Assembly: GCF_000007145.1 (NCBI RefSeq)
Contig: NC_003902.1
Span: 3,626,497 to 3,658,496, forward strand
DNA from: Xanthomonas campestris pv. campestris str. ATCC 33913
GTDB taxonomy: Bacteria > Pseudomonadota > Gammaproteobacteria > Xanthomonadales > Xanthomonadaceae
Direction: 5' to 3'
Length of the DNA: 32,000 nt
In this document: positions 544-25,074 of the stretch, piece after piece
Layout of the letters: each line of letters begins with the position of its first letter
Numbering within the stretch: position 1 is the stretch's first letter
Notes under the pieces: model-generated
Seen by the model: the letters and a program-made list of their open reading frames with translations, nothing else
Told to the model about the DNA's origin: nothing
Database searches by the model: none
Translations under genes and position numbers: made by a program

Positions 544-1155
544 CTATAGCTCGACGCCGAGCTGTGCCTTGATGCCGGCGTTGAAGGCGTGCTTGATCAG
601 GCGCATTTCGGTGACCGTATCGGCCGCCTCGATCAGGCCGGCCGGCGCGCCGCGCCCGGTGATCACCACGTGCTGGCGTGGCGGCCGTGCAGCGACTGCC
701 GCCAGCACCTCCTCCAGCGCAACGTACTCCTTAACCAGCGCGATGTTGAGCTCGTCCAACAGCACGAAGTCGTAGCGCGGGTCGGCCAGCATGCCGCGCG
801 CCAGCTGCCAGGCCGCCTGTGCAGCGACGATGTCGCGTTCGCGGTCCTGGGTTTCCCAGGTAAACCCTTCGCCCATCACGTGATAGTCGAGCAGATCCGG
901 AAAGCGTCGGAAAAACGCTTCTTCGCCAGTAGAAAATGTGCCCTTGATGAACTGCACCACGCCGCAATACAGCCCGTGGCCCAGCGAGCGCGCCAGCATG
1001 CCGAAGCCGGACGAACTCTTGCCCTTGCCGTTACCGGTATTGACCAGCAACACGCCGCGATCGATCACCGCACGTGCGATGCGCCGGTCCACCAGTTCCT
1101 TCTTGCGTTGCGCGCGTTCGCGGTAATGCGCGTCGTCGTGCTCGGGTGTACTCAT
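544..1155 (-). CDS. cobO: Cob(I)yrinic acid a,c-diamide / cob(I)alamin adenosyltransferase (CobO/BtuR type)
   Basis: C-terminal 203 aa of ORF 544..1668, starting at MSTPEHDDAHYRERAQRKKELVDRRIARAVIDRGVLLVNTGNGKGKSSSGFGMLARSLGHG..VLLDELN..VVITGRGAP... The GNGKGKS P-loop and overall layout are typical of CobO/BtuR. The ATG at 1155 overlaps the upstream gene stop (ATGA at 1152-1155). The N-terminal extension in the ORF track is Arg/Ala-rich and was rejected. Confidence 0.9.
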   Translation of the reverse strand: MSTPEHDDAHYRERAQRKKELVDRRIARAVIDRGVLLVNTGNGKGKSSSGFGMLARSLGHGLYCGVVQFIKGTFSTGEEAFFRRFPDLLDYHVMGEGFTWETQDRERDIVAAQAAWQLARGMLADPRYDFVLLDELNIALVKEYVALEEVLAAVAARPPRQHVVITGRGAPAGLIEAADTVTEMRLIKHAFNAGIKAQLGVEL

Positions 1156-1757
1156 GTGCCAACTCCAAGGGTGGAACGCGGTATCGCAGCATGCACGCTT
1201 GCACGTACGGCCAGCACGGCGCCCACATAAGCGGCCAGGCCACCGAGCGCCGGCGGGTAATACTGCGGCACCCGCGCAATGAACCCTGCCAGCGAGGCCT
1301 GCGGGTAGCGCCCGGAAAAGACATAGAACCCGCCCTTCGATAACAGATAGGCCACGCTGCCACTGAGCACCAGCGCCAGCAACAGGCGCGGCAGATCGCG
1401 CCATCCACCACGGTGCAGCCGCATCGCATACACGCGGCCGCCACACCACAACGCCGCGTAGGCCAGCGCCAAGACCCAATACGCCGGCGACACGCACCAA
1501 TCGGAGAGGCTGCCGGCGGCCATGCCGGCCAGGTCCAGCGCCGAGGCCAGCCCGAACAACAGCGGCAGCATCCACACCGGCCGCAATAAGGCGCCGGCCA
1601 GGAAGAACACCGCCCAGGACGCGCTCGGCAAGCCATCCAGACTGGCCACATGCTGGCCGCGCGTGCATACCATCAACGCGGCCAACAGTAGGCCGCCGGC
1701 CCAGGCCGCGGCACCGTGCACAGTGAGCCCGTCACTGCCGCGCCAGGGCAAGCGCAC
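1152..1757 (-). CDS. Hypothetical polytopic membrane protein (about 6 TM), paralog 2 of a tandem pair in the B12 operon
   Basis: Lies in ORF 1152..2075. The proposed GTG start at 1757 is 5 nt after the stop of paralog 1 (1763-1765). It aligns with paralog 1, e.g. GLPSASWAVFFLAGALL / HLPDASMALFFLGGLAL, SLSDWCVSPAYWVLALAYAALW / VSDFCITAAYAALPFAYGVLW, YLLSKGGFYVFSGRY / FLISNAAFYWWGGRY. Its stop overlaps the cobO ATG. The exact start is uncertain. Confidence 0.6.
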   Translation of the reverse strand: MRLPWRGSDGLTVHGAAAWAGGLLLAALMVCTRGQHVASLDGLPSASWAVFFLAGALLRPVWMLPLLFGLASALDLAGMAAGSLSDWCVSPAYWVLALAYAALWCGGRVYAMRLHRGGWRDLPRLLLALVLSGSVAYLLSKGGFYVFSGRYPQASLAGFIARVPQYYPPALGGLAAYVGAVLAVRASVHAAIPRSTLGVGT

Positions 1758-1762
1758 CGCGC

Positions 1763-2356
1763 TCACGACGGCTCCAGCGCAGATGCACTGGCCGCACTGC
1801 GTCGCGTGGTACGCCAGCGCAACACGCACCACCCCGCTGGCAGCGCCACCGCCAGATACAGTGCAGTGGTGCGCACGAACAGCGGCCCCCACTGCCAGGC
1901 ACGCGCCAGATACTGGCCCCAATGCGGATCGGCATAACGCCCGCCCCACCAGTAGAACGCTGCATTGGAGATCAGAAACGACACGGCCGCAGCCAGCACG
2001 CCCACGCACCACACACCGCCCAGGGCCACTGCACTGCGGCCCACGCGCGCGTGCAACGCACTGCCGGCGTACCACAGCACGCCATAGGCGAACGGCAACG
2101 CGGCGTAGGCCGCGGTGATGCAGAAGTCACTGACACCGGCCAGCGTCACCGCCGCCCAATCGATCAGCACCGACATCAGCAGCAGTCCGATGAAATACCG
2201 ATGTCGCCGCAGCGCCAGGCCACCGAGAAAGAACAGCGCCATGGACGCATCCGGCAGATGCAGCCAATCGCTGGTGTGGTGAAAGCGCGTAGCGGTCATC
2301 ACCAGCAGCGCGGCAATGAACACCGCGCGTTCGGCAGGACGGGATAGCGGCAGCAT
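1763..2356 (-). CDS. Hypothetical polytopic membrane protein (about 6 TM), paralog 1 of a tandem pair in the B12 operon
   Basis: Lies in ORF 1763..2482. ATG at 2356 (MLPLSRPAERAVFIAALLVMTA...) is preceded by AAGGAG (reverse complement of ctcctt at 2363-2368). The sequence has six hydrophobic segments. A GTG at 2482 overlapping the btuB stop is an alternative start, but it would add a non-protein-like Ala/Arg/Pro leader. Confidence 0.6.
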   Translation of the reverse strand: MLPLSRPAERAVFIAALLVMTATRFHHTSDWLHLPDASMALFFLGGLALRRHRYFIGLLLMSVLIDWAAVTLAGVSDFCITAAYAALPFAYGVLWYAGSALHARVGRSAVALGGVWCVGVLAAAVSFLISNAAFYWWGGRYADPHWGQYLARAWQWGPLFVRTTALYLAVALPAGWCVLRWRTTRRSAASASALEPS

Positions 2357-2478: not shown

Positions 2479-4356
2479 TCACTGCGCCGGGTGATAACGC
2501 AACGTCAGCAGGTAGGCGCGCCCCGGCTGGTTGTACCAGCGCGCGGTTTCGTACTGGCGGTCGAACACGTTGTTGGCGCTCAGCGACACCTTCCAGTCTG
2601 CGTTCACCGCATAGCTCACGCGCAGATCGAGCAGGCCGTAACCGGCCAGGCGGTCGCTGTTGGCCAGGTCGTCGTAGCGCTTGCCGGCGCCGAACAGGCT
2701 GGCGCCCACGCCGTACGCGCCGAAGCTGCGGTCCGCATCGATGCGCCCGCTCTGGCGTGCACGCCGCGGCAGCCAGTTGCCATGGTTGACGTCGCCATCG
2801 GCACGCGGGTCCAGCCAGGTCAGCGCGCTACGCACGGTCCAGCCGGCCAGTTCGGTGTCGTAGCCGGCTTCCACGCCGCGGATGCGCGCCTGGTCGATAT
2901 TGTTTGGCTGGCCGAACGGATGCGTGGCATCCACCAGCCCGGCGTCGTAGGCAATCAGATCATCGATGCGGGTCTGGAACGCGCTCAGCGTCCAGGTGCC
3001 CCAGTCGTAGTTGCCACGCAGGCCCAGCTCGGCGCTCCTGGAGGTTTCCGGCCCCAGCAGCGGATTGCCGTAGTCCGGGTAATACAACTCGTTGAACGTG
3101 GGCGCCTTGAACGCGGTGCCATAGCTGGCGGTCACACGCAGATGCGCGGCAATATCCCAGCCCCACAGCAGGCTGCCGGTGGTTTTGCCACCGAACTGGC
3201 TGTTGTCGTTGCGACGCAAGCTGGCCTGCAGCGACTGCGTGCCGAAGCTCTGCTGCCACTGCGCGAATGCGGCGCGGTCAATGCGGCTGTCGGCATCGTA
3301 GGTGTCGCTGCTGGCAATCGCATCGCGCTGCCAGTCAAACCCCACCGTCAGCAAGCCCGGGCCGGCATCCACATCGGCCTGCAACGAACCCTGCTTGCGC
3401 CGCGTGTCGTAGGTGGACACGTAGGTGCCGTCAAAATACGCATCGCTAAAATCCACGCTGCTCCCGAGGCTGGCAGTGAGCTTGAACGCGTCGGTCGGCG
3501 CATACCGCACGCGGCCGCCCACGGCTTGCTGCACACCCTTGGACAGGTTGCCGCCAAAGGCCGAGCCGTCGTATTCGTTGCGGCTCTGCGCGCGCAAGGC
3601 GTGCACGTCGGCATCCCACTGGCGGTTGAAGCGCCAACCGCCCTGCACATTCAACGAATCGTTGCGGTAGCCGTCGCGGTCCGGGTCGTAGCTGCTGGAG
3701 CGGGTGTCCAGATAGGCGTTGATGCCGTCGGTCTCGTCGTGCACCGCGTTGACCGAATACCAACCGCCGCGCTCGCCCAGATCGCCATCGCTGCGCCCGG
3801 CCACGCCGGCGCTGTAGCGGCGCGCGTTGTCGCTGCCAGCAGCAGCGCCGAAGGTCGGCACGAAGCGGCCTTCCGGGCGCCGGGTAAACAGCTGGATGAC
3901 GCCGCCAAGTGCCTCGGAGCCGTACAGGCTGGAGAACGGGCCACGCACGATCTCGATCCGTTCGATCTGCTCGAACGGGATGTCCTGCAACGCCGCGCCG
4001 CCGGCGGTGGCCGAGCCGACACGCACGCCGTCCACCAGCACCACCAGGTGGTCGGCCTCGGTGCCGCGCAGGAACAACGAGGTCTGCTTGCCGGGGCCGC
4101 CGTTATTGGCCAGCGACACGCCGGCTTCGCCGCGCAACAGGTCCTGCAGCGAATTGATCTGGCGGCGCTCGATCTGCGCACGGTCGATCACCGTCACCGG
4201 CGCCAGGGTCTGGTCCTGGGTCTGCGCGGTGCGCGTCGCGGTGACCACCACCTGGTCGAGATCGACAGCGGCCTCGGCCTGGGCCAGCGCGGCCACGCAC
4301 ATCGACAGGCACACGGCCAGCACGGCACGGCACGGCGAAACGGAAGAAAGGGACAT
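2479..4356 (-). CDS. btuB: TonB-dependent outer-membrane receptor, cobalamin/corrinoid type (BtuB-like)
   Basis: ORF 2479..4452 trimmed to the ATG at 4356 (MSLSSVSPCRAVLAVCLSMCVAALAQA signal peptide). It has a plug region DQVVVTATRTAQTQDQTLAPVTVIDRAQIERRQINSLQDLLRGEAGVSL..LFLRGTEADHLVVLVDGVRVG and a beta-barrel C-terminus. It sits directly downstream of a cobalamin riboswitch. Confidence 0.85.
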   Translation of the reverse strand: MSLSSVSPCRAVLAVCLSMCVAALAQAEAAVDLDQVVVTATRTAQTQDQTLAPVTVIDRAQIERRQINSLQDLLRGEAGVSLANNGGPGKQTSLFLRGTEADHLVVLVDGVRVGSATAGGAALQDIPFEQIERIEIVRGPFSSLYGSEALGGVIQLFTRRPEGRFVPTFGAAAGSDNARRYSAGVAGRSDGDLGERGGWYSVNAVHDETDGINAYLDTRSSSYDPDRDGYRNDSLNVQGGWRFNRQWDADVHALRAQSRNEYDGSAFGGNLSKGVQQAVGGRVRYAPTDAFKLTASLGSSVDFSDAYFDGTYVSTYDTRRKQGSLQADVDAGPGLLTVGFDWQRDAIASSDTYDADSRIDRAAFAQWQQSFGTQSLQASLRRNDNSQFGGKTTGSLLWGWDIAAHLRVTASYGTAFKAPTFNELYYPDYGNPLLGPETSRSAELGLRGNYDWGTWTLSAFQTRIDDLIAYDAGLVDATHPFGQPNNIDQARIRGVEAGYDTELAGWTVRSALTWLDPRADGDVNHGNWLPRRARQSGRIDADRSFGAYGVGASLFGAGKRYDDLANSDRLAGYGLLDLRVSYAVNADWKVSLSANNVFDRQYETARWYNQPGRAYLLTLRYHPAQ

Positions 4357-4477
4357 CAACTGCTGCTCCAGGAACCGCGCCAACCCGCGCGGGGGCAATG
4401 GGGGCGGCAGGCAGCACGGGCCAGGCGTCCGGCGCGCAAGCACCAGACGCACAAGGCCACGCCCACCGCGTGCCGGG

Positions 4478-4688
4478 TCAATCCCTCAGGCCGGTCTCCG
4501 GGCTCGCGAGTGGAAGCCTGCGCTTCCGGTACCGCGCCTTCCCATGCGTGTGCACAGTGGCCTGTTGCGGCACCTGACCTCGCCCACCGTTGCGGGGGCA
4601 GCTCCGGACTTGCGTCTCGCCAAGGCGATGCGCGCACCGGATTCCCGTTTAAACCACCGGAATTCCGGCAGTCACCTCAGGGGCGCGC
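4478..4688 (-). promoter_or_regulatory. Cobalamin (B12) riboswitch in the 5' leader of btuB
   Basis: The minus strand reads ..GGTGGTTTAAACGGGAATCCGGTGCG..AGTCCGGAGCTGCCCCCGCAACGGTGGG..GCCACTGTGC..GGGAAGGCG..AGCCCGGAGACCGGCC. This matches the conserved core (GGGAAnCCGGTG, GCTGCCCCCGCAACGGT, GCCACTG) and a B12 box (plus-strand 4489-4504). Boundaries are approximate. Confidence 0.85.
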
Positions 4689-4781
4689 ATGGTAGCAGGA
4701 TTGGCTGGGGCGCCTCGGCAGTCTCCGGCAACCGGCCAAGCGCAGCGCGACGCCTCGCGCCGGGGCGGTGAATTGCCGATT

Positions 4782-6537: not shown

Positions 6538-6719
6538 GGCGCGGCTCGCTCAGGAGGAGGCCCAACGATACCCGGCCTGCCGCGCCTGCCTCATGACGAC
6601 CGGCTATGAGCAGATTGCCAGCGCGCAGGTTCGCTAACGCAGAATCGAAGTCGCACCAAGTTCGAACAGGATACAACCGCGTGCACGCATGCCATCAACG
6701 CACCGGCACGCGATACCCC

Positions 6720-7613
6720 TCACGCAAGGTTTGTCTGTACTCGGCCATGGGCGGCAACCCAACGGCGCGACGCCGCGCCCTCCAGTCCCGCGATATCTTC
6801 GGTGGGCCGCAACGCCATGCTGCCATCGGCCTCTGCCCTGAACTGCGTGCCGTAGCGCTGCGGCCTATTCTGTCCAACCAACACGCGGTCTGTCAGCAGC
6901 GCGACCTCGCTAGGCGCCACATCGCGTCTGGTGAGCGCAGCCTCCATCAGCTTCAATGCCTGCTCCTGAAAGGCGAGGTCCGCGTCGGCATGCTGAACCA
7001 GCGTCCATGCAGCATTGGCGCCGTCCTCACCAACCAGCGAACGACCTGGCCAGCCCTTGCGAGCAATCACCTGCTTCAACCAAGCCGTATTGTCGCGATC
7101 GACTGGCGCGGTACGTACCCAGTCTTCCGGCTTGCCGCCGACAGCAATCGCGGCATGGCGGACTCTTTGATCCTGTTCAACCCGTGCCAGCAGCTCGTTG
7201 CGCAATGGCTGATCCACTGCTGCAGTCTGCTGCGCACTGAGATGCTCCGCTTTCGCTAGCAACGCGGGCCATCCAGCCGTCGTGCGCAGCCGATTGAGCC
7301 CAGGACGATCCTTGCTGCGCAGATCCTCCACCGCAATACATCTGCTCGGCATTTCATTATCGAGATACCGTAATGCTTGATCGGTCTGCCCGGCCGCCGC
7401 CAGGCATTCGGCATACAGAAGCTCGCCATTGCTGGGAAACGGAATGACGGCACCTTGCAGCGCACCCAGGATCTCCGCGCAGCGCGCGTAGTCTTGCGCC
7501 TGATACGCATCGACAGCTGCCTTGAAATCGGGCTGTGCGTCCGCGTGAGCCGCAACTGCCAACGTGATCGACATGCAGAAGCCAAAAAGCAGATGACAGA
7601 TGCGCATCTGCAT
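6720..7613 (-). CDS. Secreted hypothetical protein, DUF6624-like C-terminal domain; the C-terminus appears frameshifted (see findings)
   Basis: 297-aa ORF with signal peptide MQMRICHLLFGFCMSITLAVAAHA. The segment DNTAWLKQVIARKGWPGRSLVGEDGANAAWTLVQHADADLAFQEQALKLM..LLTDRVLVGQNRPQRYGTQF matches my recollection of the DUF6624 pattern. The family assignment comes from memory, not a search. Confidence 0.65.
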   Translation of the reverse strand: MQMRICHLLFGFCMSITLAVAAHADAQPDFKAAVDAYQAQDYARCAEILGALQGAVIPFPSNGELLYAECLAAAGQTDQALRYLDNEMPSRCIAVEDLRSKDRPGLNRLRTTAGWPALLAKAEHLSAQQTAAVDQPLRNELLARVEQDQRVRHAAIAVGGKPEDWVRTAPVDRDNTAWLKQVIARKGWPGRSLVGEDGANAAWTLVQHADADLAFQEQALKLMEAALTRRDVAPSEVALLTDRVLVGQNRPQRYGTQFRAEADGSMALRPTEDIAGLEGAASRRWVAAHGRVQTNLA

Positions 7614-13517: not shown

Positions 13518-14684
13518 TCAGCTGTCGAAGTCCAGGCGGGCGTCCACCCAGGCAGTGACAATCGCAGCAGCCACTTGCTGCGCCTGTGCGGCCGGCAAGT
13601 GCTTCTCGCGCACCAGCCAGGCGGCGGTGTCGGCACGCACCTTCGGCAGCAGTGCACGTGCGGCCTTGCGGTCGTCGGCCGGCCATGCGCTGGCGTCGCC
13701 GGTCCAGGCAGCCAACGCCTGGTCAGGATCGCCGCTATAGCGCTTGCGCAAGGCCGGCTGCAGATACAGCAATGGCGACACCGACGCACGCAGCGCGATG
13801 ACCTCCCACTCGGCGTAGCTGGCGTAGCGAATGGTGCCGGCGTCCTTGCTGATCGATTCGATCAACGACGCAAACGCCGCATCGAGCTGGGTCCAGGCCG
13901 GCAGCGCGAACAGGCCGCCCGGCGGCTCGCACAACGGCGCGAAGCTGTCGCGGGTGGAACCGTACAGCGGGCCGAATGCCTCGTACGCCGGCTCGCCAAG
14001 CGTGCTGAAGATGAAGCAATGCACATACGGGCGCGTGCTGTCGTTGCGTTCGATCCACATGCGCAACAGCGTCAGTGTCTTGTCCGGTTCCTGCACGTCA
14101 GGACCGGTGGCCTCATCGTTCAGCACCGAATCGGCAAAGCTGTCGACCTTGCGCAATGCCGCGCGCGCACTCTGAAAACGCGCCGCAGACAGCGCTGCAT
14201 CGACACCCGCGGCCGGCACGAATTGATGCAGGTACACCAACCACGCCGACGCCAGCGGCGTGTCGTAGGCCTGCAATTGGCGCGCCGCGGCCGCCGGTGC
14301 GCTCGGGATGCTGGCAATGATGCGGTCCAGGGCCTGTTGTTGCGCGGCCAGCGCCTTGTCCAGCGCATCGGCCCTGGCAGTGAGGCTGCGCTGCAGGCAG
14401 TCGTCCGGCGTGGCGTTCTGCGCGCAGGCATTGCGCTGCCGCAGCCAGGCGCGTTGCTGCTCGCGCACAGCGGCCACCGCGCTGCGCGGCGTGGTCTGCA
14501 GCAGTTCCTGATAGGACGCATCCAGGCGTTCGTCGAGCAGGCCCAGCGCCTTCACCGCACACAGGCGTTGTTCCACCGCCGTGCTTGCGCGCGCACAGTC
14601 GAACGATGCAGACCACGCGCCACCGCTGGCCAGCAACGCCGCACCGGCCAGCACCACCCGCAGCGCGTGCGCGCGCCGATTCAT
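13518..14684 (-). CDS. Secreted protein with an N-terminal LprI/DUF1311-like (lysozyme-inhibitor-like) domain and an uncharacterised C-terminal region of about 270 aa
   Basis: 388-aa ORF with signal peptide MNRRAHALRVVLAGAALLASGGAWSA. SFDCARASTAVEQRLCAVKALGLLDERLDASYQELL..REQQRAWLRQRNACAQ..DCLQRSLTARADAL fits the Cys-containing DUF1311 pattern. Its ATG overlaps the stop of the upstream permease (ATGA at 14681-14684). Confidence 0.65.
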   Translation of the reverse strand: MNRRAHALRVVLAGAALLASGGAWSASFDCARASTAVEQRLCAVKALGLLDERLDASYQELLQTTPRSAVAAVREQQRAWLRQRNACAQNATPDDCLQRSLTARADALDKALAAQQQALDRIIASIPSAPAAAARQLQAYDTPLASAWLVYLHQFVPAAGVDAALSAARFQSARAALRKVDSFADSVLNDEATGPDVQEPDKTLTLLRMWIERNDSTRPYVHCFIFSTLGEPAYEAFGPLYGSTRDSFAPLCEPPGGLFALPAWTQLDAAFASLIESISKDAGTIRYASYAEWEVIALRASVSPLLYLQPALRKRYSGDPDQALAAWTGDASAWPADDRKAARALLPKVRADTAAWLVREKHLPAAQAQQVAAAIVTAWVDARLDFDS

Positions 14685-16282
14685 GCCAGCGTCTCTTTAC
14701 GTGCCGGCAGCAGCGACAGCAGCAGCAGCGTTGCCGCCATCGCCACATACGCACCCACGAATTGCCAGCTGATCACACGCGCCAGGCCCTGCAGCGACCA
14801 GGGCAGATAGATGCCGCCGCGCGGGTCCACCGAGTGGATCAACCCGAACAAAGTCAGCCCGGCCGCGACCAGCAGGAACACCGCGCCGCGCCGCAGCCTG
14901 CCGTCGATCATCGCCACCACCGCCGCAATCCACAACATCGCGGTGATGATGAAGCCATTGCCCAGCGCGAAGACCACGGCCAGTTCCGGCAGGCCATGGC
15001 TGTCGACCTTGGTGGTCAGCGCCACCAGTTGCTCCGGCGCGATCCAGATCGGCGCCTTGATTGCCAGCAGGTAGGCCACCGATGGCAAAAAGCCCAGCAC
15101 CATCGCACCGGCGTGCTGCTTCGGCGTGGCCTGGAAGGCCTGCGTGGTGATGTCGATCGACACGTACACGATGATCGGCGCCAGCACCGCCAACGGCAGC
15201 CACTGCACCAACCCGCTGATGATGCCGAGCATGCCGCCGATGCCGACGAACAACCCGGTCAGCAGCGTATAGCCAGTGCGTGCGCCCATATGCTTGTAAG
15301 CAGGTTGGCCAATGTACGGCGTGGTCTGCGCCACACCGCCGCAGACGCCGGCCACCAACGTGGCCAGTGCTTCCACCAGCAGGATGTCGCGGGTGCGGTA
15401 ATCATCGCCGGCCGCACGCGCGCTTTCGCTCACGTTGATCCCGCCCACCACCATCAACAGGCCAAACGGCAGCAGCAACGGCAGATACGGCAAGGTGGAC
15501 GGCAAGCCATCGATAAAGCCCAGATTCGGCAGCGGCAACACCACCTGGGGCGCCACCCAGGCCGGAACTGCGAATCCAGGCGCACCCAGGCCGGCCAGCC
15601 CCAGGCCGTAATACAGCGCCGTGCCGACCACGAAAGCCACCAGCACGCCGGGCAACTTGATCGGCAGGCGGCCCTTGGCCAGCAGCACATATAGCAACAA
15701 GCCCAGGGTGACGAAGCCGGCCACCGGCGAGCGCAGGGTTTCCAGCAGCGGCAACAGGCCCATCAGCACCAGCGCGATGCCGGCGATGGAACCCAGCAAT
15801 GCGGCGCGTGGCAGCGCGCGCGTAACCGCTTCGCCAACAAACGACAGCACCAGCTTGAGCAGCCCCATCACCACCAGCGCGGCCATGCCCAGTTTCCAGG
15901 TGGCGATCGCCGCGGCCTGCGGGTCCAGTCCCTGCGCCTTGAAGCCGGCAAACGCCGGGCCCAGCACCAATAGCGCCATGCCGATGCTGGTGGGCGCATC
16001 CAGGCCCAGCGGCATGGCGGTGACGTCACCGCGACCAGTGCGCCGGGCCAGGCGGCGCGCCATCAGGGTGTAGAGCAAATTGCCCACCAGCACGCCGAAT
16101 GCGGTGCCGGGGAACATGCGGCCGTACACCACGTCGGGCGGGAACTGGAACAGGCCGATCAACGCCATCGCGATGAAGCCAAGGATAGAAAGATTGTCGA
16201 CCACCAGGCCGAAGAAGCCATTGAGGTCGCCGGAGACGAACCAGCGCGGCGATGCCGCAGTACGCGAGGAAGGGGCCGACAT
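14681..16282 (-). CDS. Polytopic inner-membrane permease, NCS2-superfamily-like (xanthine/uracil/vitamin C-type), substrate unknown
   Basis: ORF 14681..16330 trimmed to the ATG at 16282 (MSAPSSRTAASPRWFVSGDLNGFFGLVVDNLSILGF...). It is 533 aa with at least 12 hydrophobic segments. The N-terminal WFV.GDL.GFFGL..DNL motif recalls proteins annotated as NCS2 family permeases. The assignment is from memory. Confidence 0.6.
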   Translation of the reverse strand: MSAPSSRTAASPRWFVSGDLNGFFGLVVDNLSILGFIAMALIGLFQFPPDVVYGRMFPGTAFGVLVGNLLYTLMARRLARRTGRGDVTAMPLGLDAPTSIGMALLVLGPAFAGFKAQGLDPQAAAIATWKLGMAALVVMGLLKLVLSFVGEAVTRALPRAALLGSIAGIALVLMGLLPLLETLRSPVAGFVTLGLLLYVLLAKGRLPIKLPGVLVAFVVGTALYYGLGLAGLGAPGFAVPAWVAPQVVLPLPNLGFIDGLPSTLPYLPLLLPFGLLMVVGGINVSESARAAGDDYRTRDILLVEALATLVAGVCGGVAQTTPYIGQPAYKHMGARTGYTLLTGLFVGIGGMLGIISGLVQWLPLAVLAPIIVYVSIDITTQAFQATPKQHAGAMVLGFLPSVAYLLAIKAPIWIAPEQLVALTTKVDSHGLPELAVVFALGNGFIITAMLWIAAVVAMIDGRLRRGAVFLLVAAGLTLFGLIHSVDPRGGIYLPWSLQGLARVISWQFVGAYVAMAATLLLLSLLPARKETLA

Positions 16283-16419
16283 GGGAGCCAGGATGCGTGG
16301 GGACAGGCGATGGTAGCCGCTGCCCCGCATGCGCGACAGCGGCGCGGTGGATCAGAGCGTGCTGCTGCAGCGCCGCCGCTGAGGACCGCCTGCGGCGGCA
16401 TCCCGATGCACGCGACGAC

Positions 16420-17292
16420 TCAGGGCATGGCCTGGTCGGCGCGGATCCAGCCAGTGCTCTCCGCATGGCCGGCACTGCGAAACCGCACCTGCAGGCGGGT
16501 CTGGTCCGTGCTCACGTCCAGCGCTTCGAGGCGATCGCCCTCGATCAGATAGCGCCGCGTGGTGGTCGCGGTGGGCGTGGCATACAGCGGCAAGCGCGGC
16601 ACCTGCACCTGAAATGTGGCAGGCCGGGGCGCTTCCAGGCTCTGGCCGATCTCCGTGCCGATCACCCTGCCCTGCGCATCGAAACGCGGCCACACCGAAA
16701 ACGGCATGCCCTCTTCGGTACCCGGGCCCAGCACGTCCAGGATCGCCTGCGCGGCAATCGGCTGCTGGGTGGTGGACACATACAGGCGCCCAGCGGCGTC
16801 GTAGCGGTACACGTCCGCGTACCACATCGGCCCGCTGCGGCAGGAGCTGCTCATGCTGCGTTGCTGCGGGTCCGGGGTGAGATTCCAGAACCCTGCGCAT
16901 TGCACCTGCGGGCGCGTGGGCGCGGTCAGCAGGCAAAACTGCCGCTGCGCCGGGTCATACAGGAAGACCCGGGTGGCCTCGTTGACCTGCCCGAGCATCA
17001 CGGTCACCGCCAGATCCGGATGGCCATCGAAGTTGTAATCGTCGCTACGCACGCTGCCGGTGGCTTCGCCTTCGTCCAGGTCCGCGTCCAGCCATTGTTC
17101 CTGGCCGCCGGGCGCCAGCACCACATGCAGGCGCGTGCCCACCAGGCTGGCAGTGGCGCGGGTGTGCGCATCGAGCGTCAGTTGCACGTGGGTGTCGCGT
17201 GCCGACGCGGCGCACATGAGCAGCGCGGCTGCGGCGAGCACACTGCTGCTCGCCACGGTGCGGAGGTGTGGCGCCTGCCAGCGGCGGCGCAT
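16420..17292 (-). CDS. Secreted hypothetical protein with one FG-GAP/Ca-binding-like DxNxDGxxD motif
   Basis: ORF 16420..17568 trimmed to the ATG at 17292 (MRRRWQAPHLRTVASSSVLAAAALLMCAASA signal peptide). It contains the motif SDDYNFDGHPDLAV. It starts 23 nt after the upstream lipoprotein gene. Confidence 0.55.
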   Translation of the reverse strand: MRRRWQAPHLRTVASSSVLAAAALLMCAASARDTHVQLTLDAHTRATASLVGTRLHVVLAPGGQEQWLDADLDEGEATGSVRSDDYNFDGHPDLAVTVMLGQVNEATRVFLYDPAQRQFCLLTAPTRPQVQCAGFWNLTPDPQQRSMSSSCRSGPMWYADVYRYDAAGRLYVSTTQQPIAAQAILDVLGPGTEEGMPFSVWPRFDAQGRVIGTEIGQSLEAPRPATFQVQVPRLPLYATPTATTTRRYLIEGDRLEALDVSTDQTRLQVRFRSAGHAESTGWIRADQAMP

Positions 17293-17315
17293 GCGGCTGC
17301 CCGCAGAGATCCGGC

Positions 17316-17789
17316 TCAGAACGACACGTCCACCGGCTGCCGCGCCCACAGCACCGACTGGTGACCGGTGGCCTGCTTCCACGCCAGGCGGATCGCCTCG
17401 ATGTCGTTGCGCCGCTGCGGGCTGTCTTCGTGCAGGATCACCAGCACCTTGGTGCCGAGCCGGTTCGGTTCCTTGGCGCCGCGGAACAGCCACTGGCCGT
17501 AGGCGTCGAACACGGTGAGCCCGTCCGGAAAGCGCGGGGTCACTTCCTTGTCCAAAAACGCGCGCCACTGCGCGTCGCTGATGGTGCGGGTCTGCGGTCG
17601 GTCAGCCGGGCCGGTTTCCTCGCCCACTCCAAAATACAGTTCGCTCCGCACCCAACCCCGCGCTGCCGCCGGGCGCGCGGCATCGCCCTGCAGGCTGGCG
17701 GTGGTGGAGGCCGGCGCGTGCCCCGGCGTGGTGGCGCAGGCAGACAACGCCAACACGGCGGCGAACAGGCAGGACGGCAACAACTTCAT
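17316..17789 (-). CDS. DUF3574-like lipoprotein
   Basis: MKLLPSCLFAAVLALSAC (lipobox LSAC). ATG at 17789 is preceded by GGAGAG; the first codon shown in the ORF track is a TTG at 17792. WVRSELYFGVG..ISDAQWRAFLDKEVTPRFPDGLTVFDAYGQW..KVLVILH fits my recollection of DUF3574. Confidence 0.65.
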   Translation of the reverse strand: MKLLPSCLFAAVLALSACATTPGHAPASTTASLQGDAARPAAARGWVRSELYFGVGEETGPADRPQTRTISDAQWRAFLDKEVTPRFPDGLTVFDAYGQWLFRGAKEPNRLGTKVLVILHEDSPQRRNDIEAIRLAWKQATGHQSVLWARQPVDVSF

Positions 17790-17993
17790 CAATCTCTCCA
17801 GGCGGGGGCCGGCTCATGCAGGCGGGATATCAGCTCATGCCGGCGCGGGGGCACTGTGCCATCTCGCGCCGGCCTGAACAACACGATAATATCTCTCCAT
17901 CCGGATGGAAGTGGAACACTCCCGGCCCCCACCTTGCACGCCAGCGCGGCCGGATGCCGACGCGCGGCGGCCTGCCGTATTTCAGGAGACAGC

Positions 17994-20429
17994 ATGACCC
18001 GCCCCACCCTTTCGGTTATCGGCCTGGCCGTGGCCGCCGTCCTCAGCGCCAACGCCCAGGCCCAGCAAGCCGCGCCCGGCGCCACCACGCTGGACACGGT
18101 GATCGTCACCGGCACCCGTGCCAGCGACCGCACCGTGCTCGAATCCACGGTGCCGGTGGACGTGCTCACCGCCGAGGACATCCGCAAGGCCGGCGTGGTC
18201 AACGGTGAACTGGGCAGCGCGCTGCAGGCGCTGCTGCCATCCTTCAACTTCCCGCGCCAGTCCAACTCCGGTGGTGCCGACCACATCCGCGCCGCACAGC
18301 TGCGTGGGCTCTCGCCCGATCAGGTGCTGGTGCTGGTCAACGGCAAGCGCCGGCATACCTCGGCGCTGGTCAATACCGACAGCAAGATCGGCAAGGGCAC
18401 CACGCCGGTGGATTTCAATTCCATCCCGATCAACGCCATCAAGCGCATCGAAGTGCTGCGCGACGGCGCCGGCGCGCAATACGGCTCCGATGCCATCGCC
18501 GGGGTCATCAATGTCATCCTGGACGACAACCCCGAGCGCGGTGAACTGGAAGCCAGCTTCGGTGCGTACAACACCGATGTGGAGCCGATCAATCGGCGCG
18601 TCACCGATGGCCAGACCAGCTACGCCAGCGCCAAGGTCGGCACGCTGCTGGGCGACGACGGTGGCTTCTTCAAGGTGGGCCTGGAGCTGAAGAACCGCGA
18701 GGCCACCAACCGCGCCGGCTTCGATCAGATTCCGCCGTTCGAAGAACAGACCCCCGCCAACCTGGCCCTGGCCGGCCAGCGCAACTACGTGCTCGGCGAT
18801 GGCGCCACCAAGGGCCTGAACGCCTGGCTCAACACCAAGATTCCGTTCAGTGCCACCGGCGAGTTCTACGCCTTCGGTACCTACAACCAGCGCGACACCG
18901 AAGGCGCCAATTACTTCCGTTACCCGGACAGCAGCGCCAACTGGCGCGAGATCTACCCCAACGGCTACCGCCCGATTTCCGAAGGCGAAAACCGCGACCT
19001 GCAGATCGTGGCCGGCGCCCGCGGGCAATGGGGCGACTGGGACTACGACGCCAGCCTGGATTACGGCCGCAACGACTTCACCTACCGGCTGCGCAACTCG
19101 CTCAACGCCTCGCTCGGCCCGGGCAGCACCACGCGCTTCAAGACCGGTGATTTCGCCTTTGCGCAGACCGTGGGCAATTTCGATTTGACCCGCGTGTTCG
19201 ATGCGGCCGATGCCACCCACACCTTCGGCACCGGCGCCGAATTCCGCCGTGAGCAGTACCGCACGCATGCCGGCGACCCGGCCAGCTACGCGGCCGGCCC
19301 GTTCACCGATCGCCCCACCGGCTCGCAGGCCGGCGGCGGGCTCACCCCGCAGGACGAGGCCGATCTGTCGCGCAATGTGGCCAGCGTCTACGCCAACGTG
19401 TCCAGCCAGTTCGGCGACAAGTTCTCCACCGACCTGGCCGGCCGCTACGAGCACTACCAGGATTTCGGCAGCCAGTGGACCGGCAAGCTGGCCGCACGCT
19501 ACGCGTTCGCACCGGCATTCGCGCTGCGCGGTGCGGTCTCCAACAACGTGCGTGCGCCCTCGCTGAGCCAGATCGGCTACGAAGCCACCTCCACCGGCTA
19601 CGACGCCGCGGGCCGCCTGACCCAGGGCCGCCTGCTGTCGGTCAACAACCCGATCGCCCGCGCGCTCGGTGCCACCGATCTGAAGCCGGAAAAGTCGATC
19701 AACGCCAGCCTGGGTTTCACCAGCAAGCTGGGCGATCACTTCGACCTGTCGCTGGACTTTTTCCAGATCGACATCGACGACCGCATCGCGCTGTCCGAAG
19801 ACATCACCGGCAGCAGCCTCACCGATTTCGTGCAGCAGAACTTCGGCGTCACCGGCGTGCAGAGCGCCAGCTACTTCCTCAACGCCGCCGACACCCGCAC
19901 CCGCGGCGCCGAGCTGGTCGCCAACTGGCGCCAGTACGCCTTCGGCGGCGACCTGCTGCTGACCGGCACCTACAGCTATGCCAAGACCGAGTTGAAGAAC
20001 GTCATCGCCACGCCGTCGCAACTGCTGGCGCTGGATCCGGACTACGTGCTGTTCGGCGTGGAAGAGAGCAACACGCTCACCGATGCAGCCCCGCGCACCC
20101 GCGCATCGCTCGCCGCCAACTGGAGCAACGAGCACTGGAACCTGCAGAGCCGCATCAACCGCTACGGCAGCGCCACCCGCGTGTTCGACTTCGGTGCCGG
20201 CTTCGTGCCGCGCCAGACCTACGGTGCGGAATGGCAGTTGGACCTGGAAGCCGAATACCGCCTGGGCACGCAATGGACGCTGGCGATCGGCGGCCAGAAC
20301 ATCCTGGACAACTACTCGGACCGCTCCATCGACGACATCGCCTACTTCGGCAACCTGCCCTACGACGTGCTATCGCCGATCGGCAGCAATGGCGCGTACT
20401 GGTATGGACGGGTGCGGTATAGCTTCTGA
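17994..20429 (+). CDS. TonB-dependent outer-membrane receptor (substrate unknown)
   Basis: ORF 17268..20429 trimmed to the ATG at 17994 (AGGAGA RBS). It has signal peptide MTRPTLSVIGLAVAAVLSANAQA, plug TLDTVIVTGTRASDRTVLESTVPVDVLTAEDIRKAG..AQLRGLSPDQVLVLVNGKRRH, and a C-terminal GAYWYGRVRYSF with terminal Phe. 811 aa. Confidence 0.9.
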   Translation: MTRPTLSVIGLAVAAVLSANAQAQQAAPGATTLDTVIVTGTRASDRTVLESTVPVDVLTAEDIRKAGVVNGELGSALQALLPSFNFPRQSNSGGADHIRAAQLRGLSPDQVLVLVNGKRRHTSALVNTDSKIGKGTTPVDFNSIPINAIKRIEVLRDGAGAQYGSDAIAGVINVILDDNPERGELEASFGAYNTDVEPINRRVTDGQTSYASAKVGTLLGDDGGFFKVGLELKNREATNRAGFDQIPPFEEQTPANLALAGQRNYVLGDGATKGLNAWLNTKIPFSATGEFYAFGTYNQRDTEGANYFRYPDSSANWREIYPNGYRPISEGENRDLQIVAGARGQWGDWDYDASLDYGRNDFTYRLRNSLNASLGPGSTTRFKTGDFAFAQTVGNFDLTRVFDAADATHTFGTGAEFRREQYRTHAGDPASYAAGPFTDRPTGSQAGGGLTPQDEADLSRNVASVYANVSSQFGDKFSTDLAGRYEHYQDFGSQWTGKLAARYAFAPAFALRGAVSNNVRAPSLSQIGYEATSTGYDAAGRLTQGRLLSVNNPIARALGATDLKPEKSINASLGFTSKLGDHFDLSLDFFQIDIDDRIALSEDITGSSLTDFVQQNFGVTGVQSASYFLNAADTRTRGAELVANWRQYAFGGDLLLTGTYSYAKTELKNVIATPSQLLALDPDYVLFGVEESNTLTDAAPRTRASLAANWSNEHWNLQSRINRYGSATRVFDFGAGFVPRQTYGAEWQLDLEAEYRLGTQWTLAIGGQNILDNYSDRSIDDIAYFGNLPYDVLSPIGSNGAYWYGRVRYSF

Positions 20430-21123: not shown

Positions 21124-21882
21124 ATGGCAGACTTGCATTCCCCCCTTCCGTCGCCGCCATTGCTGGACGATGCCTGCGCATTGTTCCTGGACGTGGACGG
21201 CACCCTGATCGACTTTGCGCACACCCCCGAAGCAGTGCAGTTGCTGCCGGAGGTACGCGACGCAATCGCGCGCCTTAGCGAGCGCCTTGGCGGCGCCGTC
21301 GCCCTGGTCAGCGGGCGGCCGCTATCCCAACTGGACGCCCTGTTCGCACCCCTGCTGCTGCCGGCCGCCGGCCTGCACGGGCACGAGTTGCGCAGCGACG
21401 CAGCCGCACGCGCGGCAATGCCGCAAGACACCTCCGAATGGTTGCACGGCTTGCATAAACGCGCCGCTGCACTCACGCATCAACATCCTGGCGTGCTGGT
21501 CGAAGACAAAGGCGTCAGCGTCGCTCTGCATTGGCGCGCGCAACCACTTGCCGGCCCCGACGTACTCGCCTTCGCACAGCAGGAAATCGCGGCGCTGTCG
21601 GGTTACCGCCTACAGCCCGGCGATCACGTCGTTGAATTTGTTCCCGAAGGCAGCAACAAGGGCCTGGCGGTCGAGCAGCTGATGCAGCAGCCGGCATTTG
21701 CGGGCCGCACGCCGGTGTTTGTCGGCGACGACCTCACCGACGAATTCGGTTTCCAGGCGGCCAATCGCCTCGGCGGCTGGAGCGTGCTGGTCGGCGACCG
21801 CGCCCAGACCGACGCACGCTTCCGCGTGTCGGGCACCGCCGCCGTGCATGCCTGGTTGCAGCGCAGCGCGCACACCGCGTGA
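21124..21882 (+). CDS. otsB: Trehalose-6-phosphate phosphatase (HAD superfamily)
   Basis: 252-aa ORF. It has HAD motif I FLDVDGTLIDF, later VSGRP and GDDLTDE motifs, and sits in an operon with otsA. Confidence 0.85.
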   Translation: MADLHSPLPSPPLLDDACALFLDVDGTLIDFAHTPEAVQLLPEVRDAIARLSERLGGAVALVSGRPLSQLDALFAPLLLPAAGLHGHELRSDAAARAAMPQDTSEWLHGLHKRAAALTHQHPGVLVEDKGVSVALHWRAQPLAGPDVLAFAQQEIAALSGYRLQPGDHVVEFVPEGSNKGLAVEQLMQQPAFAGRTPVFVGDDLTDEFGFQAANRLGGWSVLVGDRAQTDARFRVSGTAAVHAWLQRSAHTA

Positions 21883-21931
21883 GCGCGTTACGCGCTCCCC
21901 ATCGTTTTTCCCCCAAGACGTTACGCATTTC

Positions 21932-23710
21932 ATGACCGAGTCTTCTCTGGATCTGGGCGTCATCGGCAATTGCAGTTTTGGTGCACTGGTGGACCGCCAG
22001 GCACGTGTGGTGTGGAGCTGCCTGCCGGCGTTCGACGGTGACCCTGCGTTTTGCTCGCTGCTCTCGCCCAAGGGCGAAGGTGGCGACTTCGCGGTGGAAC
22101 TCGAGGATTTCGAGAGCAGCGAACAACACTACCTGCCCAATACCGCGGTGCTGCGCACGGTGCTGCGCGACAGCAAGGGCGGCGAAGTCGAGGTGATCGA
22201 CTTCGCGCCGCGCTGGCGCAACAACGGCCGCTTCTATCGGCCGGTGAGCATTATCCGGCAGATCCGCCCGTTGGCCGGCAACCCGCGCATCGTGGTGCGC
22301 GCACGCCCGCTGGCTGATTGGGGCGGACGCACGCCGGATACCACCTGGGGCAGCAACCACATCCGCTGGGTGCTGCCGGACTTCACCCTGCGCCTGACCA
22401 CCGATGTGCCGGTGCGCTTTGTCCGCGATGGCCTGCCGTTCGTGCTCAGCCATCCGGTCAGCCTGGTGCTGGGCGTGGACGAATCGCTCACCCGCTCGCT
22501 CACCGGCTATGTACAGGAAGCGCAGGAACGCACCGAAGAGTACTGGCGCGAATGGGTGCGCTATCTGTCGATTCCGCTGGACTGGCAGGAAGCGGTGATC
22601 CGCAGTGCGATCACGCTCAAGCTCTGCCAGTACGAAGACAGCGGCGCAATCATTGCGGCGATGACCACCTCCATCCCGGAAGCGCCCAACACACCGCGCA
22701 ACTGGGACTACCGCTATTGCTGGCTGCGCGATGCCGCCTTCGTGGTGCGTGCGCTCAATCGCCTGGGCGCCACGCGCACGATGGAGCAGTTCATCGGCTA
22801 CATCTTCAACATCGCCACTACCGACGGCACCATGCAGCCGCTGTACGGCATCGGCTTCGAATCGCAGCTGGAAGAGCACGAAGTCGACACCATGGACGGC
22901 TACCGCGGCATGGGCCCGGTGCGTCGCGGCAACCTGGCCTGGATCCAGCAGCAGCACGATGTTTACGGTAGCGTGGTGCTGGCCTCCACGCAGTTGTTCT
23001 TCGACCTGCGCCTCAAAGATCAAGGCGACGCGTCCACGTTCCGCAAGCTCGAACCCTTGGGCGAGCGTGCCTTTGCCCTGCACAACGTGCCGGATGCCGG
23101 CCTGTGGGAATTCCGCGGCCGCGCCGAGGTGCACACTTACACTGCGGCGATGTGCTGGGCGGCCTGCGACCGGTTGTCGAAGATCGCCGAACGGCTCGCG
23201 CTGGACGATCGCAGCGTGTACTGGCGCGAGCGCGCCGACACCATCCGCGAACGCGTGCTGGCAGAGGCGTGGAGCGACGAACACGGCCATTTCACCGACA
23301 CCCTGGGTGGCCATCGCCTGGACGCCTCGCTGTTGCTACTGGCCGACATCGGCATCGTGGCCAACGACGACCCGCGCTTTGTGCACACGGTCGAGGCAGT
23401 CGGGCGCGTGCTCAAGCATGGCGATGCACTGTACCGCTACATCGCACCGGATGACTTCGGTGAGCCGGAAACCAGCTTCACCATCTGCACGTTCTGGTAC
23501 ATCGACGCGCTGGCCGCGATCGGGCGCAAGGACGAGGCGCGTGAATTGTTCGAGCGCATCCTTTCGCGCCGTAATCACCTCGGCTTGCTCTCTGAAGACC
23601 TATCGTTTGAAAACGGCGAAGCCTGGGGCAATTTCCCCCAGACCTATTCGCATGTGGGCTTGATCATTGCAGCAATGCGCTTGTCGCGGAGTTGGCAGGA
23701 GGCGTCATGA
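21932..23710 (+). CDS. Glycoside hydrolase family 15 protein (glucoamylase/trehalase-like)
   Basis: ORF 21698..23710 trimmed to the ATG at 21932 (MTESSLDLGVIGNCSFGALVDRQARVVWSCLPAFDGDPAFCSLL..). The region ..AMTTSIPEAPNTPRNWDYRYCWLRDAAFVVRAL..GLWEFRG..TFWYIDAL..GLLSEDL..GNFPQTYSHVGLI.. is typical of bacterial GH15. 592 aa. Confidence 0.85.
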   Translation: MTESSLDLGVIGNCSFGALVDRQARVVWSCLPAFDGDPAFCSLLSPKGEGGDFAVELEDFESSEQHYLPNTAVLRTVLRDSKGGEVEVIDFAPRWRNNGRFYRPVSIIRQIRPLAGNPRIVVRARPLADWGGRTPDTTWGSNHIRWVLPDFTLRLTTDVPVRFVRDGLPFVLSHPVSLVLGVDESLTRSLTGYVQEAQERTEEYWREWVRYLSIPLDWQEAVIRSAITLKLCQYEDSGAIIAAMTTSIPEAPNTPRNWDYRYCWLRDAAFVVRALNRLGATRTMEQFIGYIFNIATTDGTMQPLYGIGFESQLEEHEVDTMDGYRGMGPVRRGNLAWIQQQHDVYGSVVLASTQLFFDLRLKDQGDASTFRKLEPLGERAFALHNVPDAGLWEFRGRAEVHTYTAAMCWAACDRLSKIAERLALDDRSVYWRERADTIRERVLAEAWSDEHGHFTDTLGGHRLDASLLLLADIGIVANDDPRFVHTVEAVGRVLKHGDALYRYIAPDDFGEPETSFTICTFWYIDALAAIGRKDEARELFERILSRRNHLGLLSEDLSFENGEAWGNFPQTYSHVGLIIAAMRLSRSWQEAS

Positions 23711-25074
23711 GTCGTCTGGTGGTAGTATCCAATCGTGTGGCCGTGCCTGGTGAAAGCCGTGCCGGCGGCCTGGCAGTGGGCTTGTTGGCGGCGTTGAAGG
23801 AGCGCGGCGGGGTGTGGTTCGGCTGGAGCGGCAAGACCGTGCGCGGCGACAGCGGCGGCATGCACGAGCAGACCGACGGTGACATCAAGTTCGTCACCAT
23901 GGACCTCAACAAGCGCGACATCGATTCCTACTACAACGGCTTTGCCAACCGCACGCTGTGGCCGCTGCTGCACTTCCGCCTGGACCTGGTCGATTACGAC
24001 CGCGCCACGCGCGAAGGCTACCTGCGCGTCAATCGCCTGTTCGCCGAGAAGCTGGCGCCCTTGCTCAAGGACAGCGACACGCTGTGGATCCACGATTACC
24101 ACATGATTCCGCTCGGCGCGATGCTGCGCGAGCTCGGTGTGGGCTGCAAGATGGGCTTCTTCCTGCATGTGCCGATGCCGTCGGCCGACCTGATGCAGGC
24201 GATGCCGGATCACGCGCGCTTGTTCAGCACGTTCTACGCGTACGACCTGGTTGGCTTCCAGACCCAGCGCGATGCCGAACGCTTCAAGGCGTATGTGCGC
24301 CTGTTCGGTGGTGGGCGCGTGCTGGAGGGCGATCTGGTGGAAGGCCCGGGTGGGCGCCGCTTCAGCGCTGCTGCGTTCCCGATCGGCATCGACACCGATC
24401 TGATTGCCAATCAGGCCAAGGCGTCGGTCTCCAAGCAGGCAGTGCGCGATCTTCGCGAAAGCCTGCGCGGGCGCCAGCTCGCGATCGGCGTGGATCGCCT
24501 GGATTATTCCAAGGGTCTGCCCGAGCGCTTCCAGGGCTTTGAGCGCTATCTGGAGCGCTACCCGGATCAATCCGGCAGCCTCACCTATCTGCAGATTGCA
24601 CCGGTCTCGCGCGGCGACGTCAACGAATATCGCCAGCTGCGCGGGCAGCTTGAGCAGATCGCAGGCCACATCAACGGTGGTCATGCGGAGCCGGATTGGA
24701 CGCCGCTGCGTTACGTCAACCAGAACTTCAGCCATGCCACGTTGACCGGATTTTATCGCGCTGCGGCCGTGGGTTTGGTGACACCATTGCGCGACGGCAT
24801 GAATCTGGTCGCCAAGGAATTTGTGGCAGCGCAGGATCCGGAGAATCCGGGTGTGCTGGTGTTGTCGTTGCTGGCCGGTGCGGCCGATGAGATGAAAGAG
24901 GCGCTGTTGGTCAATCCGCATGATCTGGATGGTGTGGCCGATGCAATTGCGACGGCGGCGAGCATGCCGTTGGCAACGCGGGTGGAGCGTTGGCACGCGA
25001 TGATGGATCACTTGCGCAAGAACAACATCAATCATTGGCGGCAGCGGTATTTGCAGGCGTTGGCCGATATCTGA
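23707..25074 (+). CDS. otsA: Alpha,alpha-trehalose-phosphate synthase (UDP-forming), GT20
   Basis: The ATG at 23707 overlaps the GH15 stop (ATGA at 23707-23710). MSRLVVVSNRVAVP..GGLAVGLL..WFGWSG..YYNGFANRTLWPLLHFRLD..LWIHDYHMIPLG..FFLHVPMPS..VDRLDYSKGL..GMNLVAKEFVAAQ are GT20 hallmarks. 455 aa. Confidence 0.93.
   Translation: MSRLVVVSNRVAVPGESRAGGLAVGLLAALKERGGVWFGWSGKTVRGDSGGMHEQTDGDIKFVTMDLNKRDIDSYYNGFANRTLWPLLHFRLDLVDYDRATREGYLRVNRLFAEKLAPLLKDSDTLWIHDYHMIPLGAMLRELGVGCKMGFFLHVPMPSADLMQAMPDHARLFSTFYAYDLVGFQTQRDAERFKAYVRLFGGGRVLEGDLVEGPGGRRFSAAAFPIGIDTDLIANQAKASVSKQAVRDLRESLRGRQLAIGVDRLDYSKGLPERFQGFERYLERYPDQSGSLTYLQIAPVSRGDVNEYRQLRGQLEQIAGHINGGHAEPDWTPLRYVNQNFSHATLTGFYRAAAVGLVTPLRDGMNLVAKEFVAAQDPENPGVLVLSLLAGAADEMKEALLVNPHDLDGVADAIATAASMPLATRVERWHAMMDHLRKNNINHWRQRYLQALADI

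Follow-up and report, generated by a model that had tools for sequence, protein, structure and literature searches.

Two divergent BtuM-family proteins encoded side by side in a cobalamin riboswitch operon of Xanthomonas campestris

Introduction

By what route do vitamin B12 (cobalamin) and related corrinoids cross the inner membrane of Xanthomonas? The question is raised by a 32,000-nucleotide stretch of the X. campestris pv. campestris str. ATCC 33913 genome (contig NC_003902.1, positions 3,626,497 to 3,658,496), referred to below as the window. The minus strand of its first 4.7 kb is a single compact operon that comprises a cobalamin riboswitch, the outer-membrane receptor gene btuB, two genes of about 200 codons here termed btuM-A and btuM-B, the adenosyltransferase gene cobO, and a cobB-type gene. 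A preliminary description of the window, drawn up without database searches, had placed two open reading frames (ORFs) between btuB and cobO and proposed that they encode corrinoid inner-membrane transporters, either BtuM-like or of a new family. Both ORFs lie on the minus strand where that description put them, and the riboswitch, btuB, and cobO are confirmed by Rfam and NCBIfam models. Because the two genes share one B12-riboswitch operon with btuB and cobO, their products (A and B) would fill the inner-membrane step between uptake and adenosylation.

The analysis presented here assigns both proteins to the known BtuM family and separates them into two subfamilies whose genes share an operon across a bacterial order. 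Most likely, A and B are independent solitary transport proteins that probably differ in corrinoid preference or affinity, a reading held with good though incomplete confidence. The evidence for it, and for the four alternatives to it, is set out in the following sections.

Assignment to the BtuM family

BtuM was originally predicted from its gene neighborhood, in which btuB, btuR, and a riboswitch recur (PMC6072759). In the protein of Thiobacillus denitrificans (BtuM_Td), the axial ligand of cobalt is Cys80, a residue that does not vary within the family and that is needed for complementation and decyanation (Rempel et al., 2018; PMC6072759). An Escherichia coli transport mutant regains B12-dependent growth with BtuM_Td, but not with its C80S variant (PMC6072759).

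When A and B were compared with the Protein Data Bank (PDB) by phmmer, chain A of entries 8c7p/8ovv was the single strong match for each, with E 6.7e-22 over residues 3-172 of A and E 2.6e-38 over residues 20-191 of B. Foldseek labels these entries [quoted passage not shown] H28, D67, C80, Y85, and R153 are present in this chain at the positions given by Rempel et al. (2018), and its closest database relatives are Thiobacillus proteins; it is the BtuM of T. denitrificans. Identity to BtuM_Td is about 43% for B and 37% for A in the profile alignment, and 42% and 34%, respectively, in the Foldseek alignment.

A and B each retain the equivalent of Cys80 together with the pocket residues H28, D67, Y85, and R153. 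Among 244 aligned family members, D67 and Y85 are conserved in all 244, Cys80 in 243, H28 in 215, and R153 in 187. The preliminary description had noted one cysteine common to both proteins at the start of helix 4. Cys79 of A and Cys88 of B do occupy a single alignment column, which holds cysteine in 96/96 and 90/90 of the aligned homologues; its position, however, is in the loop just ahead of helix 4 in the models of A and B, corresponding to loop L3 of BtuM. The lone family member with serine in this column, P0475, may be a natural counterpart of C80S or result from an error in sequencing.

The predicted structures point the same way. AlphaFold2 models of A and B have a mean predicted local distance difference test score (pLDDT) of 87.8 and 85.3, respectively, and a predicted template modeling score (pTM) of 0.85 in both cases. 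The structure-based comparison with BtuM that had been proposed earlier gave template modeling (TM) scores of 0.77/0.84 for A and 0.79/0.88 for B against 8c7p, and 0.76-0.88 overall against 8c7p/8ovv, at a Foldseek probability of 1.00. The next matches are other S-components of energy-coupling factor (ECF) transporters (RibU, ThiT, BioY, and FolT) at a TM score of about 0.5. All 197 amino acids of A are taken up by the S-component fold, and no additional signaling domain is present. Neither protein matches the FecCD, ATP-binding cassette (ABC) ATPase, or periplasmic binding protein families of Pfam, as components of a BtuCDF-type importer would. Full-length similarity, the invariant cysteine, the pocket residues, the six-helix ECF S-component fold, and the association with btuB, cobO, and a riboswitch thus place both A and B in the BtuM family. 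Of the two options left open by the preliminary description, BtuM-like stands and a new family does not.

Scans of A and B against Pfam and NCBIfam returned nothing usable, the sole match being a sub-threshold one to DUF5993 (E 0.04), and many database entries for their homologues read "hypothetical protein." Taken in isolation, this would suit a pair of proteins unrelated to B12 that occupy the operon by accident. Their strong homology to a characterized B12-binding protein, with the cobalt-ligating cysteine conserved, and a position behind a cobalamin riboswitch near btuB and cobO that is kept across two proteobacterial classes make such an accident extremely improbable.

Family membership in itself is not new, since the species is in a published homologue list and B already has a name. 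B and some orthologues of A are labeled "Cobalamin ABC transporter" in UniProt/UniRef. X. campestris pv. campestris ATCC 33913 appears three times among the 131 jackhmmer hits in Supplementary Data 1 of Rempel et al., as do X. oryzae, Lysobacter capsici, L. enzymogenes, Stenotrophomonas panacihumi, and Frateuria (PMC6072759). According to this list, a third BtuM homologue would be encoded elsewhere in the ATCC 33913 genome; a tblastn search for a third copy in the window found none. Only Thiocapsa marina is flagged in the list as having an ECF transporter, and X. campestris ATCC 33913 is unflagged (PMC6072759). Neither the text nor the supplement of Rempel et al. comments on paralogues or a tandem arrangement (PMC6072759), and Xanthomonas copies, subfamilies, or pairs are not discussed in the relevant searchable papers that mention BtuM. 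The division into two subfamilies and the conservation of the A-B operon therefore appear to be undescribed so far.

Relationship of the two subfamilies

The paralogy of A and B, claimed earlier from shared sequence blocks, is borne out: the quoted blocks are present, and BLASTP aligns the proteins at 33% identity over 156 amino acids (E 8e-16). The closeness of this relationship is another matter. A family profile matched 718 representatives at E <= 1e-3, and 244 aligned members were placed in a neighbor-joining tree with 100 bootstraps. The A-type clade was recovered in 83/100 bootstraps, and A plus B were monophyletic in 0/100. A shows 34-38% identity to each of the other groups, with B at about 34%. 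B shares 52-55% identity with the Pseudomonas single BtuMs and 43% with BtuM_Td, and it groups with Pseudomonas and Solimonas in the tree. Within-type identity is 62% and 66% for the two types. A recent tandem duplication as the origin of the pair was rejected on the strength of the failed monophyly and the equal distance of A from all groups. Judged from these comparisons, B is orthologous to the canonical BtuM that Pseudomonas and betaproteobacteria have as a single copy, and A represents an old, divergent BtuM subfamily. All named A-type matches come from Lysobacterales/Xanthomonadales except for one metagenome-assembled genome (MAG) labeled Pseudomonas.

The nearest outgroup of the A-type clade, P0450 (43-44% identity), is encoded on a metagenome contig (L085, 678-2289) next to a Peripla_BP_2 gene for a BtuF-like periplasmic binding protein. 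This link to an ABC-type binding protein was not seen at other loci.

Fifteen positions are type-specific, defined as at least 90% conserved inside each type and different between types, and several of them lie near the ligand cysteine and in helices 5-6. Relative to BtuM_Td, A has M for W40, W for F137, G for S139, and W for Y157, whereas B has W for F79. The residue adjoining the cysteine is accordingly F in A and W in B. A is further marked by the signature ...SFLISNGAFYWxGGRY...WQWGPLFVRTT, the last block of which lies in helix 6, and B by an N-terminal extension of 10-20 amino acids compared with BtuM_Td.

That A departs from all other BtuMs at several conserved positions raises the idea that one protein, most likely A, is not a transporter. 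It could instead be a membrane-bound corrinoid decyanase, a chaperone, or a sensor that passes substrate to B. Decyanation by BtuM is separable from binding (PMC6072759), and sensor kinases likewise make use of the S-component fold (PMC11109136). However, A lacks any domain beyond the S-component fold that could signal, and in the Dyella and Fulvimonas operons described below (btuB-A-cobO) it is the sole BtuM, so that there it has to provide for the inner-membrane step unless those genomes encode another importer elsewhere. A role of this kind is very improbable.

Both genes are maintained under comparable purifying selection. Within Xanthomonas, the ratio of nonsynonymous to synonymous substitution rates (dN/dS) is about 0.22-0.27 for both, with dS near saturation.

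Operon context in related genomes

Eighty loci from species-representative genomes, fetched with the BtuM family profile, were searched for BtuM types, btuB, and cobO. The arrangement btuB-btuM-cobO is kept in most of them, across gamma- and betaproteobacteria. The proposed check for riboswitch linkage among relatives was made with Rfam on 21 related loci, and all 21 have a cobalamin riboswitch upstream. No ECF module turned up in the 80 loci, in which the search, made on protein sequences, covered btuB, cobO, and salvage genes.

The order btuB, A-type, B-type, cobO is present in 24 of 25 sampled loci of Lysobacterales/Xanthomonadales, from Xanthomonas, Stenotrophomonas, Lysobacter, Luteimonas, Pseudoxanthomonas, Marilutibacter, and Frateuria. 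A tandem pair, which the preliminary description had thought unusual, is thus the norm within this order. The exception is one Stenotrophomonas MAG with B only. Outside the order, Pseudomonas, Stutzerimonas, Azotobacter, Methylobacillus, Neptunomonas, Sulfuricella, and others have one B-like BtuM between btuB and cobO. Conversely, Dyella caseinilytica, Dyella jiangningensis, and Fulvimonas soli have a syntenic operon with A alone, in which the riboswitch and btuB (divergent in one case) are followed by A, cobO, and then salvage genes. Across the order, the A-to-B junction is tight: at one extreme the genes overlap by 4 nucleotides, and at the other they are a few tens of bases apart. This tightness is consistent with co-translation.

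The fixed, coupled A-then-B order in 24/25 loci is what might be expected if the working transporter of Xanthomonadaceae/Lysobacteraceae were an obligate or preferred A:B heterodimer, in which one protomer serves as the scaffold for toppling and replaces EcfT. The transport route of solitary S-components is unresolved (PMC11109136), and the solitary-capable S-component BioY has been reported to oligomerize in vivo (PMC3246461). An obligate heterodimer is unlikely because operons with A alone and with B alone exist and because BtuM_Td by itself complements E. coli (PMC6072759). A occupies the slot without B in the two Dyella species and Fulvimonas soli, and B or a B-like protein does so without A in the Stenotrophomonas MAG and in all sampled Pseudomonas, Methylophilaceae, and Sulfuricella loci. 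In addition, the ligand site is complete in both proteins, which would be needless for a pure scaffold. The heterodimer idea, also raised in the preliminary description, is weakened by these findings and must be considered improbable.

Downstream of the BtuM genes, cobO is followed by cobB-cobD-cobC-cobQ-cobU nearly everywhere, whichever BtuM type is present. In the other sampled Xanthomonas and Stenotrophomonas loci (L001, L017, L020, L044, and L048), cobD comes immediately after cobO, and cobB gave no match. cobB is kept in Lysobacter, Dyella, Pseudomonas, and the X. campestris window. Since a cobB/cbiA-type gene is present here and has no match in the sampled Xanthomonas relatives, the presence of cobB varies within the genus.

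The shared riboswitch, the translational coupling of the two genes, the retention in both proteins of every residue known to matter in BtuM, and the identical downstream genes of single-type operons of either type could all be accommodated if A and B were redundant transporters of the same substrates, with the second copy kept for dosage or robustness. Against this stand the identity of only about 34% between two proteins that were never sisters in 100 bootstrap trees, the maintenance of distinct types across the order, and the 15 type-specific conserved positions. Simple redundancy also rarely lasts so long under a dN/dS of about 0.25 on both copies. Redundancy is therefore unlikely on balance, while being an alternative to be taken seriously.

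Other lineages have acquired additional BtuM genes. In a Nitrosomonas MAG (L076, 6345-7591), a tandem BtuM pair lies between btuB and cobO; its members are 65% identical and each other's closest relatives. Two Methylovorus loci (L041, 812-6619; L050, 1562-7531) contain two consecutive riboswitch-btuB-btuM modules, each with its own riboswitch. The two Methylovorus BtuMs are about 30% identical, and the upstream copy scores weakly against the family profile. BtuM has thus been duplicated independently in Nitrosomonas and Methylovorus. The separate outer-membrane receptor of each Methylovorus BtuM suggests that additional copies may serve different corrinoids.

Two further observations concern individual loci. 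A Solimonas MAG (L025) has cobalamin riboswitches on opposite strands within 3 kb, at 3981-4237 (-) and 6676-6891 (+), one of which is directly upstream of a BtuM gene without btuB in front. Reading frames are split in two for btuB, btuM-B, and cobO in X. phaseoli ATCC 49119 (L048) and for btuM-A in X. axonopodis DSM 3585 (L020). An interpretation of these as pseudogenes was not adopted; several neighbors are broken in L048, and assembly indel errors are more likely.

Proposed mode of action

By analogy with BtuM_Td, cobalt-sulfur ligation, decyanation, and transport may be expected of both A and B. When B12 is scarce, the riboswitch would permit expression of the operon, and BtuB would deliver corrinoids to the periplasm. 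BtuM-A and BtuM-B could then each bind a corrinoid in the base-off form in a periplasm-facing pocket, with the cysteine thiolate as the axial cobalt ligand, and strip cyanide from cyano-forms. Transfer of the corrinoid across the inner membrane would rely on toppling-type movement, as proposed for S-components, and would need neither ATP nor an ECF ATPase module. CobO would adenosylate the cofactor, and downstream enzymes would complete or remodel it. Adenosylation probably also traps the imported cofactor in the cell; btuM co-localizes with btuR, and metabolic trapping has been proposed by Rempel et al. (PMC6072759).

For A and B, transport activity, independence, and specialization are what we infer from homology, phylogeny, and operon context. 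Several points weigh against two independent, specialized importers. The content of downstream salvage genes does not differ among A-only, B-only, and A+B operons; because these genes are alike for all BtuM types, context does not tell the roles of the two proteins apart. Since the 80 loci come from a ranking on similarity to B, they are no measure of how common A-alone operons are. Finally, BtuM transport rests on an in vivo growth assay, and a mechanism free of the ECF module is still called unclear (PMC11109136).

Comparison with known transport systems

BtuM_Td is the closest characterized counterpart. It shares with A and B a length of about 200 amino acids and a gene position beside btuB and btuR/cobO behind a cobalamin riboswitch, with no ECF module nearby. 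Unlike T. denitrificans, X. campestris has two tandem copies from separate subfamilies. The single BtuMs of Pseudomonas, Stutzerimonas, and Azotobacter (btuB-btuM-cobO-cobB) are encoded in the same operon order behind a riboswitch, but no A-type gene intervenes between btuB and btuM.

Solitary BioY likewise combines the S-component fold with vitamin transport in the absence of EcfT or EcfA, by a mechanism that is also unresolved (PMC6072759, PMC11109136). However, it has another substrate, no sequence similarity (Foldseek TM score of about 0.48 to BioY 4dve), and neither cysteine-metal ligation nor substrate chemistry, and most BioY proteins do have an ECF module.

The type II ABC importer BtuCDF carries out the same step, from periplasm to cytoplasm downstream of BtuB, with an unrelated architecture of FecCD permease, ABC ATPase, and periplasmic binding protein. 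In line with the preliminary description, FecCD, ABC ATPase, and Peripla_BP_2 were all absent from the window ORFs scanned against Pfam, which were those of at least 90 amino acids with coding-like GC content at third codon positions (GC3), a few short or doubtful ORFs falling outside the scan and two of the scanned ORFs (14681-16330 and 21215-21682) matching no Pfam family. CbrT, the S-component of the B12 transporter ECF-CbrT, is typical of Firmicutes and is not known to have the cysteine ligand of BtuM. According to the account of Santos et al. (2018, eLife) given in PMC7329351, CbrT resembles A and B in being an inner-membrane protein with a B12-specific S-component fold, but it needs an EcfAA'T module, and no ECF genes were found among the scanned window ORFs.

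Gene boundaries and flanking genes

btuM-A (1763-2356, minus strand; 197 amino acids) begins at an ATG seven bases after an AAGGAG ribosome-binding site. This site lies in a 122-nucleotide spacer (2357-2478) that separates the gene from btuB. A terminator-like site was sought in the spacer and none was found; a long imperfect hairpin is present, yet its folding is not better than that of shuffled sequence (z = -1.4). A longer, 239-amino-acid form of btuM-A from GTG 2482, overlapping the btuB stop, was rejected, as homologues have 190-197 amino acids and the frame is closed upstream in other genomes. btuM-A is 97% identical to the representative of its cluster, from X. campestris pv. raphani, and X. 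campestris genomes on record contain exactly the btuM-A sequence of the window.

btuM-B (1152-1766, minus strand) encodes 204 amino acids from GTG 1766 or 201 from GTG 1757, the numbering of Cys88 being that of the 201-residue form. GTG 1766 is the more likely start because it overlaps the btuM-A stop as GTGA, where X. maliensis and X. floridensis have ATGA, and because the 204-residue form is the commonest call among X. campestris genomes. The preliminary description had taken the genes to be tightly packed, with 5 nucleotides between btuM-A and btuM-B and an overlap of the btuM-B stop with the cobO start. The latter (ATGA) stands, and the 5-nucleotide gap probably gives way to an overlap. 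The 201-residue product is identical to AAM42336.1/Q8P6A5 (Q8P6A5_XANCP) of X. campestris pv. campestris ATCC 33913. Public start calls for btuM-B differ (204, 201, 175, and 173 amino acids), and many RefSeq calls have 173. The 173-residue form begins at Met29 of the 201-residue form and loses most of transmembrane helix 1, which spans residues 15-33 of the model and aligns with residues 12-21 of BtuM_Td. It is probably a truncated call.

The remaining parts of the operon are also on the minus strand. The riboswitch aptamer in the leader (4472-4694) matches Rfam RF00174 over the full model (1-189; 106.4 bits). btuB (2479-4452), which encodes the TonB-dependent outer-membrane vitamin B12 receptor, matches NCBIfam TIGR01779 with 913 bits (cut-off 600) and the Pfam families Plug and TonB_dep_Rec_b-barrel. 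cobO/btuR (544-1155) encodes the ATP:cob(I)alamin adenosyltransferase (Pfam PF02572, E 3e-59; NCBIfam TIGR00708, 214 bits). The cobB/cbiA-type gene (1-541; Pfam PF01656 CbiA, E 6e-10), whose product resembles cobyrinic acid a,c-diamide synthase, starts at GTG 541, two bases beyond the cobO stop. Only its 5' part is included, as it is cut by the window edge.

Elsewhere in the window, a second TonB-dependent receptor is encoded at 17268-20429 (+), with 1053 amino acids by the longest ORF. Its Plug domain begins only at residue 291, so either the N-terminus is extended by a long stretch or the start was called too far upstream. It is followed at 21698-25074 by genes for a glycoside hydrolase family 15 (trehalase-like) and a glycosyltransferase family 20 (trehalose-6-phosphate synthase-like) protein. 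Two ORFs have no Pfam match at E <= 1e-5, one of 549 amino acids with high GC3 at 14681-16330 (-), which adjoins genes for an LprI-domain protein and a DUF3014 protein, and one of 155 amino acids at 21215-21682 (+).

Significance

BtuM is a known family that is poorly annotated; it has no Pfam or NCBIfam model, and most of its entries are hypothetical proteins. Current understanding of B12 uptake is unchanged by the A/B finding. What it provides for Xanthomonas, a major group of plant pathogens, is an assignment to the two BtuM-type proteins of the step that was missing from B12 and corrinoid salvage, passage across the inner membrane. The new point for the family is that BtuM comprises at least two old subfamilies, which are kept together in one operon across a whole order. 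Should A and B act as a heterodimer after all, the pair would offer a concrete model for transport by solitary S-components without an ECF module. The A/B, Nitrosomonas, and Methylovorus pairs are natural comparisons for the corrinoid preference of a cysteine-ligating transporter, and they bear on whether solitary S-components act alone.

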